Part shown: positions 21,767 through 27,782 of the stretch, in pieces
How the letters are laid out: each line of letters starts with the position of its first letter
Numbering within the stretch: position 1 is the stretch's first letter
Virus record (IMG/VR): IMGVR_UViG_2718218453_000005
DNA length: 48,452 bases
Source: a virus
Taxonomy: Duplodnaviria > Heunggongvirae > Uroviricota > Caudoviricetes
Strand: one strand, 5' to 3'
Made by a program: the position numbers and the translations under genes
Notes under the pieces: generated by a model
Database searches by the model: none
Told to the model about the DNA's origin: nothing
Seen by the model: only the letters and a program-made list of their open reading frames with translations

Positions 21767-23074
21767 TTAAATCCGAAGTGATGTGACTCTTCCGGTCGGT
21801 TTGACAATAGGGAATTGCTTAACGATGAAATAACCTCCGGCATCATTCGGGTGATCATTGCCAGATTTTTTATCAGGCTCCCCCTTCTCATCCCAGACCT
21901 GTTGCTCCAGAGATTCGGCATATAACGGGCAACGCTTCACATTAACTTTATAGCGACGCTCACCATTGGCATTGCAGAACATTGCATTCATTGAGTTAAC
22001 GCGATCTTTTACTGGCGGGTTCGAGCTGTTCACCACAACGTTAAAACCAGCCTGCTTAAGCTGGGCTATATCCGTCGTACTTGCGTTACTTGATTTTCTG
22101 GAATCCCCGGAAGCATCTGGATAAATATAAATTTCCCTCACTTTCCGGTAATCATTCCCATCATACAGCCAGAAGCGTTCTTTAATGATGCGGATCATAT
22201 CCGGCGTATCGTAGGCATTGATGATTTCAGTTACCGCACATGGAAGCCCCAAACGCAGCACATGGACGATTCCCGCCATCTTTCCAACGTTAAAATCCAT
22301 CCCAATATAAATCGGCTCCCCTGGCTGCTCCACTTCTTCGCAATTATTCAGTTTCCGGTCAAACTGATGGTAAACAGTACCACTTGTCAGGTTAGTAAAC
22401 TGTCCTCGAAGATAGGCTTTAATCAGCTCTGGAGGGTATGATTCAAGAAGCGAAGGAATGTAATCTGCTGGCAGGTTCTTTTCATTATCGAAAGTAGATG
22501 CCTGCACCAGACCATACAGTGAGGCCAGCTCTGTTTTTTCACGCACGGCTTTAACAAACTGCTCGTAGACAAATTTGAATCCTTCCGGCGTGGTTGTAAC
22601 GTCAATACCGTTGCGAAGTCCATCAATCTTATAACGCATACGTGCAATTATCTTGCGCCACGCCGTTCTGGCTTTTTCCTTCGGCAAAATGTCCAGTTCA
22701 TCCACCAACGCATTACCAATTTTGAAACCGACGATCGTTTGTGGCTTCTCCATCGATCTGCAGATAGTGGTTCCCCGATACTGGCGTCCGTAATAAAAGT
22801 GAACCTCTTTATTTCCCTCATTAATTTTTACGTTCAATCCCCAGTCAGCAGCAACTTCTTCCACTGTAGGGTAAAAAATATCGCGAATTTGGGGATACGT
22901 TGGCGCAAAATATCCCTGATTTATACCTGGATGCTCCCAAATCCCCTTGCATATGCCGCCACACCCAACCCATGTTTTGCCCGAGCCAAAACCAGCAATA
23001 TAGGCTTTAAATTTATGGGGCATTGAAAGAAATCGCGCCTGAGGCACATTAAGCGTCGGAGAGATCATCTTCAT
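21767..23074 (-). CDS. terminase large subunit
   Basis: Walker A-like GFGSGKT near N-terminus, acidic nuclease-type C-terminal half; first ATG at 23074 (ORF-track start 23077 is GTG). Confidence 0.85.
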   Translation of the reverse strand: MKMISPTLNVPQARFLSMPHKFKAYIAGFGSGKTWVGCGGICKGIWEHPGINQGYFAPTYPQIRDIFYPTVEEVAADWGLNVKINEGNKEVHFYYGRQYRGTTICRSMEKPQTIVGFKIGNALVDELDILPKEKARTAWRKIIARMRYKIDGLRNGIDVTTTPEGFKFVYEQFVKAVREKTELASLYGLVQASTFDNEKNLPADYIPSLLESYPPELIKAYLRGQFTNLTSGTVYHQFDRKLNNCEEVEQPGEPIYIGMDFNVGKMAGIVHVLRLGLPCAVTEIINAYDTPDMIRIIKERFWLYDGNDYRKVREIYIYPDASGDSRKSSNASTTDIAQLKQAGFNVVVNSSNPPVKDRVNSMNAMFCNANGERRYKVNVKRCPLYAESLEQQVWDEKGEPDKKSGNDHPNDAGGYFIVKQFPIVKPTGRVTSLRI

Positions 23075-24143
23075 CACTCCTTACTCTGGCATCAACCACA
23101 TTAATATTGATCGCCACAGGCTGGGGATGTTCATTATCTTCCACCGTTTCGATCTCTTTGCGCAGCTTCTGGTTTTCCATTCTGCGCCGTTCAATTTCCA
23201 GTTCCTGTAGCCGCTTATCTGCACATAAAGCCCCGCCAGCAGAAAACAAACGCAACAATTCACGCCGGGCGGCAGCCTTATCCTCCAGCAGGATCTCAAC
23301 GCCGAATTTTCCGAATTTTGCCCCTGCATATAATTGCCGCGCATCCCCATCAAGCAGAGTGGTATCAGCCATATAAAGCTGTCCCGTTCCCTCACCGCAG
23401 CACTTCGGGCAGTCCGGATTGGGTATGGCGTTATCAACAAAGCCGAGGCCTCCATATTCCGGTTCGGGTTTGCCATCTCTGGAAGCCTGCGCCGCTGCCT
23501 TGTCGAATTCTGCTATATCGCGCCACTGGTAGAGATGATTCTCGCCCCAGCAATAACGGCAGTTAACACGGCGAAATTGTGCAAGCTGATTGGGGTCGGC
23601 CAGGACAATAGCCATCAACTGACTCACTAGTAAATCCAGGTCTGCGGTATAGCGTTTCTGGTACTGATTGCGGAAGTAGCTGATAGCGCGAAAAACCCTG
23701 GCATTTCTAAGCATACGACTGGCGTTGCTGTTAGCTGTCGCACCTTGCCCCTCATAACCGGCTAGTCGGTACGCCTCTGTCGGCTTTTTACCCTGAGCAA
23801 CAAGCATTGCAAACTTAACCTGCTGGTCAGAAATGCCGAATTCATCGGGACAGAACGAAAATTCCTCCGCGTCGCCCTCATTCAGGCCCGCATCGAATAC
23901 TGGCTTTTTTTCCTGAGATTTTTCGTTCCGCTTTTGTGCAGTCTGCGCAGATTTTTTCTGCGCACTTTTTTGCGCAGTTTTGCACATTTCTGTCTGCGCA
24001 TTTTTCGGAGTTTTTTTGATGTAACGACGGGCTGTTGCGTAATTCAGTCCCCTTGCTTCACACCATGCCACCGGAGATATACCGGAGCGGGTGTATTCAG
24101 CAATATACTCCTGCTGCAACGCCCCCCAGTCCGGTCTGCTCAT
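23049..24143 (-). CDS. terminase small subunit
   Basis: N-terminal HTH-like GISPVAWCEARGLNYATARRYIKK, Lys/Gln-rich linker, immediately upstream of and overlapping TerL. Confidence 0.7.
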   Translation of the reverse strand: MSRPDWGALQQEYIAEYTRSGISPVAWCEARGLNYATARRYIKKTPKNAQTEMCKTAQKSAQKKSAQTAQKRNEKSQEKKPVFDAGLNEGDAEEFSFCPDEFGISDQQVKFAMLVAQGKKPTEAYRLAGYEGQGATANSNASRMLRNARVFRAISYFRNQYQKRYTADLDLLVSQLMAIVLADPNQLAQFRRVNCRYCWGENHLYQWRDIAEFDKAAAQASRDGKPEPEYGGLGFVDNAIPNPDCPKCCGEGTGQLYMADTTLLDGDARQLYAGAKFGKFGVEILLEDKAAARRELLRLFSAGGALCADKRLQELEIERRRMENQKLRKEIETVEDNEHPQPVAININVVDARVRSDEDDLSDA

Positions 24144-24146
24144 CAG

Positions 24147-24398
24147 TTAGTCCTGATTTTTATCCACCCTGAGTAGTTCGCGCAGAGCAAAGGCATCCCC
24201 TTTTCTGGCAAGCTTAAACAATGCCGCTCGTAACTCGGCTTCACCTTTCGCTCTGCCCTTACGGATGGCCGCATAAAAATCTGTCATTGCTTCCCGATTT
24301 TCTTTCAGTCGGTTCAGATCAACATCCAGAACGTCAGCGATTTGTTGTGCAGTCATCCGGCACGCTGCCAGAGACTCGACTTTCGAATACGGAATCAT
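24147..24398 (-). CDS. small HTH-like protein upstream of terminase
   Basis: 83 aa, ATG with GGGGTGA SD; overlaps 3' end of upstream gene by 65 nt. Confidence 0.4.
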   Translation of the reverse strand: MIPYSKVESLAACRMTAQQIADVLDVDLNRLKENREAMTDFYAAIRKGRAKGEAELRAALFKLARKGDAFALRELLRVDKNQD

Positions 24399-25266
24399 TT
24401 GTCACCCCCATTGATATGCAGGGTGTCTTCTTCCTGTATTTTTCGTGAAGGATTTTTACTGCAGCGTTGTTCCAGGTGACCTGATGGTGAATGCGTTTAT
24501 GGCTGGCACCCATCAGTGAGATTTTTACGCACGACGGCGCATACATGACGGAGTAAAAACTTTTAACGTAGGTTCCGGAATCCAGATACAGCTCGGTCAT
24601 TCCGCCGCTGTTTTTCTGCGTCTGTTTCTGCCCTAACTGGACAGCACCGATCGTCATAAACAATTCACCACAGCGACCGAGATTCGTGTACGTATTCACA
24701 TCCTCGTTAATGCGCCCCATGAATGAGAACGGTCGATCAACCGAACAGATAAAGCTGTTCATTGCCTTGCGTTTCACCCACGAAGCATGGCCGCCATTGT
24801 CACCAAGAAAATCCCCGCCCTGCGACATAGCGATGGAAAGAGCAGGTATTGATTCGTAGTACGCCAGCATTTCAGAAAGGATCGCATCCAGTTTCCTTAT
24901 CGGAAAATAGGCCTGGTCATAGTTGCGATCCACCCGAAACTGGAACTCGTGATAATCATCATCGAGCTGAATGAAGTATTTACACCCGACCAGTTTTGCC
25001 AGGTCGAAACAGGCATTACGGGCGTAAAAAATTGAGCGGCGGTCACAGAAATTATCGGCTTCGTCAAAACGACTGGCGATATCGGCTTTGGAAAACACCA
25101 GCACCTGTTCACCAAATTCAGCCATGTACTGATGCCGTGTCTTATCTTCATCATCAACAACGATAAAAATTTTCCCGGTATAGCCAGCACGACGCAACGT
25201 CCGGTAAGTCAGAACTTTGTCCGGTCGCCCGTGAGTCAGAATAAAGGCGCAAAAATCATCACGCAT
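24334..25266 (-). CDS. DxD-motif protein, possible GT-A-fold glycosyltransferase-like enzyme (function unknown)
   Basis: trimmed to ATG at MRDDFCAFILTHGRPD with GAGGAGGAGG SD; motifs IFIVVDDED and IQLDDDYHEF; ATG overlaps ParB-like stop (ATGCGTGA). Confidence 0.6.
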   Translation of the reverse strand: MRDDFCAFILTHGRPDKVLTYRTLRRAGYTGKIFIVVDDEDKTRHQYMAEFGEQVLVFSKADIASRFDEADNFCDRRSIFYARNACFDLAKLVGCKYFIQLDDDYHEFQFRVDRNYDQAYFPIRKLDAILSEMLAYYESIPALSIAMSQGGDFLGDNGGHASWVKRKAMNSFICSVDRPFSFMGRINEDVNTYTNLGRCGELFMTIGAVQLGQKQTQKNSGGMTELYLDSGTYVKSFYSVMYAPSCVKISLMGASHKRIHHQVTWNNAAVKILHEKYRKKTPCISMGVTNDSVFESRVSGSVPDDCTTNR

Positions 25267-26050
25267 ATTCCTCCTCCTCACCACCATGCATGATCTCCAC
25301 CATGCGCTGCGTCATCCGGACAAATCCATTTTCAATAGCCTGCTGATAATCAATGATCACCAGCGCCGACTCCTCGAAAAAACACTGAATTTCAGAGGGG
25401 GCGTGAGCGTAATAGTCCGCAATTCTGCTGAAATTAAACACCGTGTGACGTTCTGCCGCACACAGGAGGAATTTCTCAATATCAGGCTCAAGGGACGCCG
25501 AACGTATCCGGCTGATCAGCTCCTGAGTTTTCGTATCGTCGTACAGTTCACTGATATCCGGTTTACCGCCCGACGGCTCATAAACAGGCGTATCAATTTT
25601 CGTCGTATACGGCTCCTCCTCATTTCCTGTACCGGGCAAAACATCCGTCAACAGTTCATCAATTTCTGTCGGGATGAAGCCTGTCAGGGAGACATCAAAA
25701 TCAGCATTGATTAGGTCCGACAGCTCCATCCGCAACAGATCTTCATCCCAGCCAGCATTCATCGGCAGGCGATTATCTGCCAGGCGGTACGCCTTTTTCT
25801 GCTCATCCGTCAGGCCAGACAGAACAATGACCGGAACAGAATCCATTTTGAGCATTTCAGCCGCCATAACACGACCGTGACCCGCAATAATTTCGCCCTT
25901 TTCGTCAATCAGCACCGGATTAGTCCAGCCGAATTGCTTAATACTTTCTACCAGTTGTGCCACCTGCTCAGTACTGTGCGTCCTGGCGTTGTGCGCATAC
26001 GGTGACAATTCTTGTAATGGGCGATAGACTATCTTTAATTTCTCGCTCAT
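25259..26050 (-). CDS. ParB N-terminal-like (ParB/Srx) nuclease domain protein
   Basis: 263 aa; N-terminal region with GHGR motif (IIAGHGRVMAA) typical of ParB/sulfiredoxin fold; acidic C-terminus. Confidence 0.7.
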   Translation of the reverse strand: MSEKLKIVYRPLQELSPYAHNARTHSTEQVAQLVESIKQFGWTNPVLIDEKGEIIAGHGRVMAAEMLKMDSVPVIVLSGLTDEQKKAYRLADNRLPMNAGWDEDLLRMELSDLINADFDVSLTGFIPTEIDELLTDVLPGTGNEEEPYTTKIDTPVYEPSGGKPDISELYDDTKTQELISRIRSASLEPDIEKFLLCAAERHTVFNFSRIADYYAHAPSEIQCFFEESALVIIDYQQAIENGFVRMTQRMVEIMHGGEEEEYA

Positions 26051-26066: not shown

Positions 26067-26101
26067 AATAAAACGCACCCCAGCAGCCAGTGCTACTGGG
26101 G
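26067..26101 (-). terminator. terminator-like hairpin downstream of trkG
   Basis: minus strand CCCCAG-12nt loop-CTGGGG followed by TGCGTTTTATT. Confidence 0.4.
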
Positions 26102-26187: not shown

Positions 26188-27645
26188 TTAGGAGCGCCAA
26201 AAAAAACCTGAAAACAATATAATAACAGGATAAATTTCAAGGCGACCAAGAATCATAGCTATGCACATTAAACATTTTGCAATGTCATTAAGCACTCCGA
26301 ATGACGATGCAGTAGCCCCAAAACCTAATCCCATATTATTAATACATGCAGCCACTGTTGCAAATGATGTAAGAAAATCATATCCCATACCATTTAACAC
26401 CAGTATAAAAAACACCGTGAAGAGAGTATAAAGAAAAAAGAAACTCCATACAGACCTCATTACACGATCTGTAACTATCTTCCCTCCTACATTTACACTC
26501 AACAACGCTCTGGGATGAGAAAGCTGATTTATCTCGTGTTTGCTTTGTTTGAAAAGTATAAGAAATCGAAGTGACTTAATTCCACCACAAGTTGAACCTA
26601 TACATCCCCCAAAGAAACTTGACAACAGCAAAAACACTATCGTGTGCGTGGGCCAACTTGCATAATCCTGCGTAGCTAAACCATTATCAGTGAGCATGGA
26701 GCTGGCAAGAAAAAACGAATGAATAAAACTTCCATGCAAGTCATACATACCTATATGCCAGACCTGGAAAGAGGTAACAATGATCACCCCTAAGGCTATT
26801 AACAGAAAGAAACGAAGTTCAATATCTCTGATTAAAGGTTTTATCGTTTTCCTGCTAATAACAATATACCAAAGAGTGAAGTTGAAAGCCGATAGCAGGG
26901 AAAAAGAACCAGCCACCAGCTCAACCAAATAGTTATTAAAATATCCGATACTCTCGCTATGAGTTGAGAAACCACCAAGCGAAACTGTGGAAATCCCGTG
27001 ACAAATAGCATCAAACAAAGGCATTCCTGCAAGTCTATAACAGACAATACAAGCAATACCTAATAAAGAATAAGTTATCCACAGTGTCCGTGACGTATCG
27101 GCCAGGCGGGGAGTGAGTTTGTCATCCTTAAATGGCCCCGGCATTTCTGACTGATAAAGCTTTGCACCACCAATACCCAATAATGGCAATACAGCAACCG
27201 CCAGAACAATAACTCCTAAACCACCTATAAAATTTAACTGTGACCGATAGTACAAATATGCCCGAGGTAATGAACTAACATCATCAATTACAGTTGCTCC
27301 TGTTGTTGTTATTCCAGAAACCCCTTCAAACAGAGCATCAATGAACGTTAAATTAAGTTCTGAGTCAATCCATAAAGGGAATGCACTAATAACAGAAAAC
27401 AAAATCCAAAACATTACAATTATAATAAACCCATCACGGGTACGTAATTGAATGCCAGATTTCTTAGTTGTATACCACGCTCCGCCACCAATGCAAAAAA
27501 ATATAACGAAAGTTATAAAGAAAACGAACAGGCTTTTTTCTTTATAAAACAATGCTACAACCATTGGTGGCAACATTGAAAGACTATAGAGCCAAACCAG
27601 GAACCCACACATATGAGTAACAACTCTTACATGAGATGTATTCAT
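26188..27645 (-). CDS. trkG: Trk-system potassium uptake protein TrkG
   Basis: 485 aa from first ATG (MNTSHVRVVTHMCGF...); polytopic membrane protein matching K-12 Rac TrkG as recalled; AT-rich codon usage. Confidence 0.9.
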   Translation of the reverse strand: MNTSHVRVVTHMCGFLVWLYSLSMLPPMVVALFYKEKSLFVFFITFVIFFCIGGGAWYTTKKSGIQLRTRDGFIIIVMFWILFSVISAFPLWIDSELNLTFIDALFEGVSGITTTGATVIDDVSSLPRAYLYYRSQLNFIGGLGVIVLAVAVLPLLGIGGAKLYQSEMPGPFKDDKLTPRLADTSRTLWITYSLLGIACIVCYRLAGMPLFDAICHGISTVSLGGFSTHSESIGYFNNYLVELVAGSFSLLSAFNFTLWYIVISRKTIKPLIRDIELRFFLLIALGVIIVTSFQVWHIGMYDLHGSFIHSFFLASSMLTDNGLATQDYASWPTHTIVFLLLSSFFGGCIGSTCGGIKSLRFLILFKQSKHEINQLSHPRALLSVNVGGKIVTDRVMRSVWSFFFLYTLFTVFFILVLNGMGYDFLTSFATVAACINNMGLGFGATASSFGVLNDIAKCLMCIAMILGRLEIYPVIILFSGFFWRS

Positions 27646-27782
27646 ATCTAAATATTCTTTCAATTATAACCACCTTGCTGCAATATTATGATTATACTGT
27701 ATAAAATTTAACTCCTCTTAGATCTTACTTCACTGTTCCTTATGAAACAATCATCAAAATGAATCATATTGTAGTTAAGATT

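Follow-up and report, generated by a model that had tools for sequence, protein, structure and literature searches.

An obligate pair of a TAGT-family glycosyltransferase and a ParB-type partner protein precedes the packaging genes of a Rac-like E. coli prophage

The subject of this study is a pair of overlapping genes in IMG/VR virus record IMGVR_UViG_2718218453_000005, a stretch of 48,452 nucleotides (nt) that is called the window throughout and that amounts to an almost complete E. coli prophage of the lambdoid, Rac-like kind. The upstream gene encodes a partner protein with a ParB-type N-terminal domain, and the downstream gene encodes a glycosyltransferase of the TAGT family. An earlier note, made from the letters of this DNA, had placed two overlapping genes at 24334-26050; both open reading frames (ORFs) are indeed present on the minus strand, and their 8-nt overlap of partner stop and glycosyltransferase start, ATGCGTGA, points to translational coupling.

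The gene pair and its protein domains

The two genes and the features within them, with protein lengths in amino acids (aa) and charge as isoelectric point (pI), are as follows.

25259-26050, minus strand: partner gene, 263 aa; RefSeq 'ynaK', ParB/Srx family N-terminal domain-containing protein
25751-26050, minus strand: ParB-CTPase-fold N-terminal domain, about residues 1-100, with the P-motif GHGR at residues 57-60
25622-25750, minus strand: acidic helical linker, about residues 101-143; segment median pI 4.05 across lineages
25574-25609, minus strand: conserved linear motif YTTKIDTPVYEP, residues 148-159; consensus YTxKIxxPxYEP
25286-25525, minus strand: acidic C-terminal helical domain of the partner, about residues 176-255; FLxxAAxRHxVF...IAxYYAHA...Q.LME.SALVIID...AIxNG
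25259-25266, minus strand: stop/start overlap of 8 nt; the reverse complement reads ATGCGTGA
24334-25266, minus strand: TAGT-family glycosyltransferase of the GT-A (glycosyltransferase A) fold, 310 aa; RefSeq 'GREB1-related protein'
24955-24963, minus strand: DDD (DxD-type) metal and nucleotide-sugar motif, residues 102-104
24397-24600, minus strand: subfamily-specific C-terminal region of the glycosyltransferase, residues 223-290 (GGMTELY...GTYVKSFY...RIHH), beyond the Pfam model

The glycosyltransferase start was assigned to the ATG at 25266 rather than to the start of the longest ORF, seven codons upstream, because the homologues and the RefSeq protein begin with MRDDFC. With 122.3 bits against Pfam PF20691 (cut-off 27.5; E 3.4e-35; residues 8-222 aligned to profile positions 4-205 of 205), the protein scores above the gathering threshold and belongs to the TAGT family; it also matches phrog_842 (E 6e-104). 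No solved structure matches it by sequence. The model adopts a GT-A fold, and its best structural matches in Foldseek are viral TAGT proteins. The DDD motif is invariant in two homologue alignments, R14 and E188/D189 are also conserved, and these residues fit the R...DDD...ED(Y/F) arrangement, which is the active-site pattern of phage GT-A DNA glycosyltransferases and of the trypanosome JGT (bioRxiv 10.1101/2023.12.21.572611). The earlier note had proposed a GT-A-like, metal-dependent transferase from the stretches KIFIVVDDEDK (D38-D41) and IQLDDDYHEF (D102-D104); both are present, and the family and fold assignments bear the proposal out. The Pfam match stops at residue 222, and phrog_31222 spans residues 199-280. 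Within the C-terminal region that follows, G222, T224, Y227, K235, P244, H260 and H261 are invariant, and the region has a low predicted local distance difference test score (pLDDT) in the monomer model despite this conservation. It may form the interface with the partner.

The partner protein matches phrog_620 (E 1e-90), and its N-terminal domain is recognised by Pfam ParB_N (E 9e-7), modelled with AlphaFold2 (AF2) at a pLDDT of about 85 and matched by Foldseek most closely to Noc, ParB, PadC and KorB. The ParB/Srx fold that the earlier note had read from IIAGHGRV (G57-R60) is therefore present, while nothing supports the nuclease activity implied by its term 'ParB-like nuclease'. Of the 84 partners with this domain, most have a P-motif of the form G(H/N)xR, and 1 has the catalytic glutamate of the GERR form; binding of a nucleoside triphosphate (NTP) is plausible from these residues and hydrolysis doubtful. 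Since a few lineages are without the P-motif arginine, neither binding nor hydrolysis can be indispensable for the core reaction. Outside the family, this domain is most closely related to the N-terminal segments of DNA adenine methyltransferases from phages, with identities of up to 57%, and it also matches phrog_498 'DNA methyltransferase' (E 9e-51) and PADLOC MTase_II (E 1.5e-38). This relationship agrees with the suggestion that the pair occupies the slot of a ParB-methyltransferase module. Partition was considered as a function and rejected, given that Pfam scans of the window ORFs returned neither a ParA gene nor a helix-turn-helix (HTH) domain; the HTH parS-binding domain and GERR P-motif of a canonical ParABS ParB are both missing, and the TIGR00180 match reaches 38 bits against a cut-off of 58.

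The remainder of the partner holds its invariant part. Among 164 distinct partner sequences, R201, A211, Y214 and D234 do not vary, and at least 99% share Y148, P155, Y157 and E226. A Pfam scan revealed no HTH or other Pfam domain besides ParB_N; for the C-terminal domain the best Pfam match (E 0.01) is sub-threshold noise, and its profile retrieved from PDB sequences only insignificant matches, to designed armadillo repeats. A search of 1.8 billion representative proteins returned 1189 clusters at 50% identity with this domain; of the 150 top hits inspected, nearly all have it at the C-terminal end or close to it. In the AF2 monomer the ParB domain is the only part modelled with confidence; the motif and C-terminal domain range from about 35 to 70 in pLDDT, with the YTxKIxxPxYEP motif itself below 50. 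The low monomer confidence of these segments and of the C-terminal region of the glycosyltransferase would be consistent with mutual folding of the two proteins.

Conservation of the pair and its setting in the prophage

A neighbourhood survey of homologues, as the earlier note had advised, was carried out on 172 TAGT loci, with relatives drawn from annotated phages, IMG/VR and one genome per species, and reduced to 102 lineages at 85% identity. These lineages span Proteobacteria, Firmicutes, Actinobacteria, Bacteroidota, Verrucomicrobiota, Desulfobacterota and others, together with the haloarchaeal virus HHTV-2. A partner homologue lies upstream in all 102: directly upstream and overlapping in 87, interrupted by the contig end in 8, and separated by an additional gene, often a second TAGT paralogue or an S-adenosylmethionine (SAM) methyltransferase, in 7. 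The overlapping junction is found in 87 of the 94 lineages with upstream sequence. Because the same order and overlap recur in 102 lineages from many phyla, both are real genes and not chance ORFs. This observation was further strengthened by the reverse survey, in which the partner C-terminal domain served as the query: all 77 of the 77 viral contigs retrieved encode TAGT on the strand of the partner gene, next to it in almost every case. The TAGT subfamily and the partner are thus an obligate unit in both directions, and across the 179 surveyed lineages they are the only conserved genes, with no other conserved neighbour. Downstream of the pairs lie at least four mutually unrelated terminase families. 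The correlation between TAGT and partner trees in a mirror-tree comparison is moderate (r = 0.53) and adds little.

The ParB domain is missing in many of these lineages. Short forms account for 58 of the 77 partners in the reverse survey, and about nine lineages of the TAGT survey have a partner of 131-153 aa with no ParB domain and no ParB ORF upstream. Short partners start just before the YTxKIxxPxYEP motif, and pairs of this kind follow DNA polymerase A or primase-helicase genes. The universal part of the partner is the motif plus the C-terminal domain, not the ParB domain, and since the short partners lack any ParB domain, we take the former to be its core. This dispensability of the ParB domain had escaped the earlier note. 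Across lineages, the median pI is 8.7 for the basic TAGT protein versus 4.6 for the acidic partner.

Several variations on the arrangement were observed. In six Clostridia/Lachnospiraceae prophage lineages (L143:10860-11819, L144, L145, L158, L159 and L171) a radical-SAM gene of the SPASM/twitch-like type directly follows TAGT, in the order partner, TAGT (sometimes with a second TAGT), radical SAM and small terminase, which suggests a longer modification pathway. Two tandem TAGT paralogues share a single partner gene in L117:2970-5117, L160:82-2331, L144 and L159, an arrangement reminiscent of sequential sugar addition. At L147:5456-7648, a SAM-dependent methyltransferase gene (Methyltransf_23-like) sits between the short partner gene and TAGT. 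A partner-TAGT fusion was considered as Rosetta-stone evidence and set aside, as the sole case, P0241 (161 aa, with 96% identity to the E. coli protein), seems to be a frameshifted fragment.

The genes that flank the pair in the window are listed below.

26188-27663, minus strand: trkG, upstream of the pair, between the lysis cassette and the partner gene
26078-26101, minus strand: intrinsic-terminator-like hairpin ending the trkG moron; 10-bp stem with 7 G-C pairs, then a T-run
24147-24398: small ORF, 83 aa (RefSeq 69 aa), matching a terminase-small-subunit PHROG
23049-24143: terminase small subunit, downstream of the pair
21767-23077: terminase large subunit, downstream of the pair

The earlier note had set the pair between trkG and the packaging genes, which is correct except that the small ORF intervenes before the terminase small subunit, where it overlaps the 3' end of the glycosyltransferase gene. 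The E. coli TAGT protein ends in a tail of ~20 residues (24334-24398) that is absent from most homologues (285-290 aa), and the coding sequence of this tail overlaps the start of the terminase-associated ORF. The guanine-plus-cytosine (GC) content of trkG is 0.34-0.41 versus 0.48-0.50 for the pair, with flanks of about 0.50; trkG is a clear moron, and the pair has phage-backbone composition and a late-operon position. The trkG hairpin lies 27 nt upstream of the partner start, and late transcription must pass this terminator to reach the pair and the terminase genes.

Elsewhere in the window, the minus strand holds the terminase, portal, head and tail genes, recE, recT and int lie at the right end of the prophage, and a cI-like repressor, a Q-like antiterminator and the lysis genes S, R and Rz are also present. 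An ORF of 1210 aa in the early region (33696-37328, minus strand) matches the Pfam YobI-like P-loop NTPase (E 8e-123) and PADLOC Tmn (E 1e-66) and is probably a prophage-borne anti-phage defence gene, and a DUF1971 (TehB-like) ORF on the opposite strand in the early/late boundary region (32487-32840, plus strand) is probably another moron.

Many E. coli chromosomes carry the 2.2-kb region that contains the pair with 100% identity. Of 5426 complete E. coli genomes, 1619 have the region, and in 867 at least 80% of it is covered; ETEC H10407 is one strain in which the prophage is intact. The cryptic Rac prophage of K-12 MG1655 (1425377-1425980) retains, as ynaK, only the first 87 aa of the partner and has lost the glycosyltransferase and head genes by deletion. 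Fusions of the ynaK fragment with Lom, tail-fibre or terminase pieces are numerous among database proteins and are attributable to similar deletions in other strains.

Candidate functions and the acceptor of the sugar

Our tentative interpretation, which we hold as the leading one at somewhat less than even confidence, is that the pair is a two-subunit, late-expressed DNA glycosyltransferase acting on phage DNA after replication. The 310-aa protein would be the catalytic, DNA-contacting subunit, a basic GT-A DxD enzyme using a nucleotide-sugar donor, and the motif and acidic C-terminal domain of the partner may bind, complete or activate it. The ParB domain would then be an optional module, possibly borrowed from methyltransferase fusions, that provides nucleotide-dependent loading on, or access to, duplex DNA, in a role that can be likened to that of the ParB-like activators of phage thymine dioxygenases. 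As the pair is transcribed in the late operon directly before the terminase, the phage genome would be marked before packaging, and such a mark would most plausibly blunt nuclease-based host defences. The function on DNA, on the virion or against restriction that the earlier note had envisaged is a plausible inference. In support of a DNA-directed enzyme are the obligate pairing, the complementary charge of the two proteins, the hint that they fold on each other, the relation of the ParB domain to DNA methyltransferases, the precedent of ParB-dependent dioxygenases (PMC13229309), the backbone-like GC content and the position of short-partner pairs after replication genes.

Several observations weigh against this interpretation, the first of which concerns the acceptor. 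Every characterised DNA-acting member of the family needs a prior hydroxyl, supplied by 5-hydroxymethylcytosine (5hmC), 5-hydroxymethyluracil (5hmU) or an attached sugar. ORF scans of the 48-kb prophage, which took in most coding-strand ORFs of at least 100 aa, revealed no TET/JBP dioxygenase, thymidylate-synthase-like hydroxymethylase or C5-methylase; the scanned ORFs map to ordinary lambdoid functions, to the Tmn/YobI-type NTPase or to no Pfam family, and nothing in the few that match no Pfam family (189, 358 and 153 aa) suggests a dioxygenase. Recurrent neighbour clusters from 102 + 58 lineages contain none of these three enzyme types either. When 136 such clusters were scanned against Pfam, TET_JBP was not among the families listed (25 of the 92 matched), a result that holds for recurrent families. 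The earlier note had overlooked this absence of an enzyme forming hydroxymethyl-pyrimidines, and the genomic linkage to TET/JBP (5mYOX) or to another such source that is expected of PF20691 proteins is lacking here. In addition, the partner is acidic and without a recognisable DNA-binding domain, its C-terminal domain is modelled with low confidence, the P-motif arginine is lost in a few partners, and, with the ParB domain absent in many lineages, the core reaction cannot depend on that domain for DNA loading. GREB1, an animal protein with a TAGT domain, is moreover an O-linked N-acetylglucosamine (O-GlcNAc) transferase for ER-alpha (PMC7968844).

Because the prophage offers no source of 5hmC or 5hmU, the acceptor must differ from that of the characterised TAGT and JGT enzymes. 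One possibility, which we consider rather unlikely taken by itself, is direct transfer of the sugar by the complex to a canonical, unmodified DNA base, for example at an exocyclic amine, by analogy with arginine GlcNAcylation by GT-A enzymes. A protein acceptor, the main rival and also unlikely in our estimation, would follow the GREB1 precedent: TAGT could, most simply, modify the invariant tyrosine or threonine/serine of the partner's own motif, in the manner of glycogenin or of a glycocin S-glycosyltransferase and its substrate, or it could modify a virion or host protein with the partner as adaptor. The want of a hydroxylated base in the prophage, the invariant, hydroxyl-rich and predicted disordered motif of the partner, the strict 1:1 gene pairing and the presence of GT2 genes after the capsid gene in one related contig are all in keeping with such a system. 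A protein that served merely as substrate, however, would not be expected to retain an entire helical domain in which R, Y, E and D residues are invariant, and its repeated fusion to a methyltransferase-type ParB domain would be unexpected; the TAGT protein is also basic, as nucleic-acid enzymes often are, and short-partner pairs lie inside replication modules.

A conventional glycosyltransferase of hydroxymethyl-pyrimidines appears improbable. Its substrate would have to come from an unlinked or unrecognised hydroxylase of phage or host, from rare oxidised bases (5hmU) or from the DNA of a co-infecting or superinfecting phage. TAGT and JGT do act on 5hmC or 5hmU (bioRxiv 10.1101/2023.12.21.572611), the Pfam TET_JBP model misses thousands of 5mYOX-like sequences (PMC13229309), a C5-methyltransferase occurs within 10 kb upstream in 6 of the 102 lineages, and the neighbour scan rests on the 25 of 92 families mentioned above. 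Hypermodification pathways are, however, normally clustered (bioRxiv 10.1101/2023.12.21.572611). The nearly complete 48-kb prophage contains no candidate among the ORFs scanned, and conservation across the surveyed lineages is confined to TAGT and its partner. E. coli is not known to make 5hmC or 5hmU enzymatically. Very improbable, and disfavoured by the co-occurrence data, is the idea that the two genes have separate functions, the first as a ParB-like nuclease, packaging or partition accessory of the terminase and the second as a moron glycosyltransferase that modifies envelope glycans. The pair does adjoin the terminase, genes in this slot often bear a ParB-like 'nuclease' annotation, and prophages often carry O-antigen-modifying glycosyltransferases. 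Such independence is difficult to reconcile with strict two-way pairing in overlapping frames across bacteria and one archaeal virus, with partners that often have no ParB domain, with the absence of ParA and HTH from the window or with downstream terminases that are mutually unrelated. A moron or serotype-conversion function was rejected on the backbone-like GC content, which differs from that of trkG, and on the strict pairing.

The DNA glycosyltransferase interpretation remains the one we tentatively prefer. TAGT-family glycosyltransferases give phage and trypanosome DNA their sugar decorations, and in a previous mining effort about 65% of the contigs with phage glycosyltransferases lacked a neighbour for hydroxylated bases, which was left unexplained (bioRxiv 10.1101/2023.12.21.572611). 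A large share of these orphan homologues now turns out to form a single, coherent and obligate system of two proteins, in which the partner carries an undescribed domain and the genes lie ahead of those for packaging in phages whose hosts range from E. coli to haloarchaea. The pair is less obscure than the earlier note assumed, given that the family is in Pfam, that RefSeq carries the name 'GREB1-related protein' and that ParB-dependent DNA-modifying enzymes were shown in 2026 (PMC13229309). As the family is already catalogued, it is not categorically new; what is new is a TET-independent, obligately partnered form. Our literature search found no study of ynaK/ydaY/GREB1-related proteins or of a ParB-like protein and glycosyltransferase pair, which may be explained by the K-12 Rac prophage keeping the 87-aa partner fragment and no glycosyltransferase. 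Since an intact copy exists in 867 of 5426 E. coli genomes, in an inducible lambdoid prophage, the modified target is answerable by standard genetics and nucleoside mass spectrometry. Any of the three main outcomes would be useful, be it a previously unseen mark on unmodified DNA bases, viral protein glycosylation of a new type or a hidden hydroxylation route. If glycosylation of a canonical base were true, it would be an undescribed kind of DNA modification, made by a two-gene cassette that roughly one in six complete E. coli genomes carries, as do phages of haloarchaea and of many phyla.

Comparison with known systems

Among characterised proteins with a TAGT-type domain, GREB1 demonstrates that a member of the family can do without TET and that its acceptor need not be DNA; unlike the pair described here, it is a 1949-aa multidomain eukaryotic protein with no ParB-type partner and no phage context. 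To the beta-glucosyl-HMC-alpha-glucosyltransferase of T2/T6 (HMC, hydroxymethylcytosine) the likeness is limited to the phrog_842 label and a distant fold match, seen in Foldseek as a hit to the Klebsiella phage PKO111 homologue (E 8e-6). The T2/T6 enzyme extends a glucose already present on hydroxymethylcytosine, in phages that build HMC DNA, and the prophage has neither a deoxycytidine monophosphate (dCMP) hydroxymethylase gene nor a first glucosyltransferase gene. With no HMC pathway in the prophage, the phrog_842 label is almost certainly a misnomer here. The same label is given by PHROGs-based pipelines in Lactobacillus, Porphyromonas and haloarchaeal viruses without an HMC pathway; the name is a propagated and misleading one.

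The closest enzymatic relatives are the TAGT (PF20691) proteins and the trypanosome JGT, with which the 310-aa protein shares the Pfam family, the GT-A fold and the R...DDD...ED active-site pattern. It differs from the characterised members in standing without a dioxygenase, C5-methyltransferase or hydroxymethylase, in having a conserved C-terminal region of ~70 residues and in its obligatory partner.

For the partner, two phage systems are instructive. ParB/DNA methyltransferase fusions are enriched in prophages (Kaljevic et al. 2025, PMC12704722), and those of the phrog_498 and MTase_II type (PMC12704722) share with our pair the ParB-CTPase domain type and a phage origin. The presumed common logic is a ParB module coupled to a nucleic-acid-modifying enzyme; in the present pair, unlike the fusions, the enzyme is a separate polypeptide joined through what would be a dedicated adaptor domain, and it transfers a glycosyl rather than a methyl group. 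The second is the recent report of a phage ParB-like protein without a DNA-binding domain that activates its cognate thymine dioxygenase specifically on double-stranded DNA (O'Toole et al. 2026, PMC13229309), for which models place the dioxygenase where the DNA-binding domain of ParB normally sits (PMC13229309). The 5mYOX176/ParB176 pair of that study resembles ours in setting an enzyme of a phage DNA-modification family beside a cognate ParB-like protein, with terminase genes as frequent neighbours. An adjacent ParB-like protein with a nucleotide-binding and a C-terminal domain and no HTH is likewise found here, and the strict co-occurrence of the two genes argues that the enzyme may depend on it. 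The enzyme is, however, a GT-A glycosyltransferase and not a 5-methylpyrimidine dioxygenase, and many lineages do without the ParB domain, the motif and the C-terminal domain being the invariant part. Our findings extend the emerging view of ParB-fold proteins as regulators of DNA-modifying enzymes to a glycosyltransferase, and they correct a misleading PHROG annotation.

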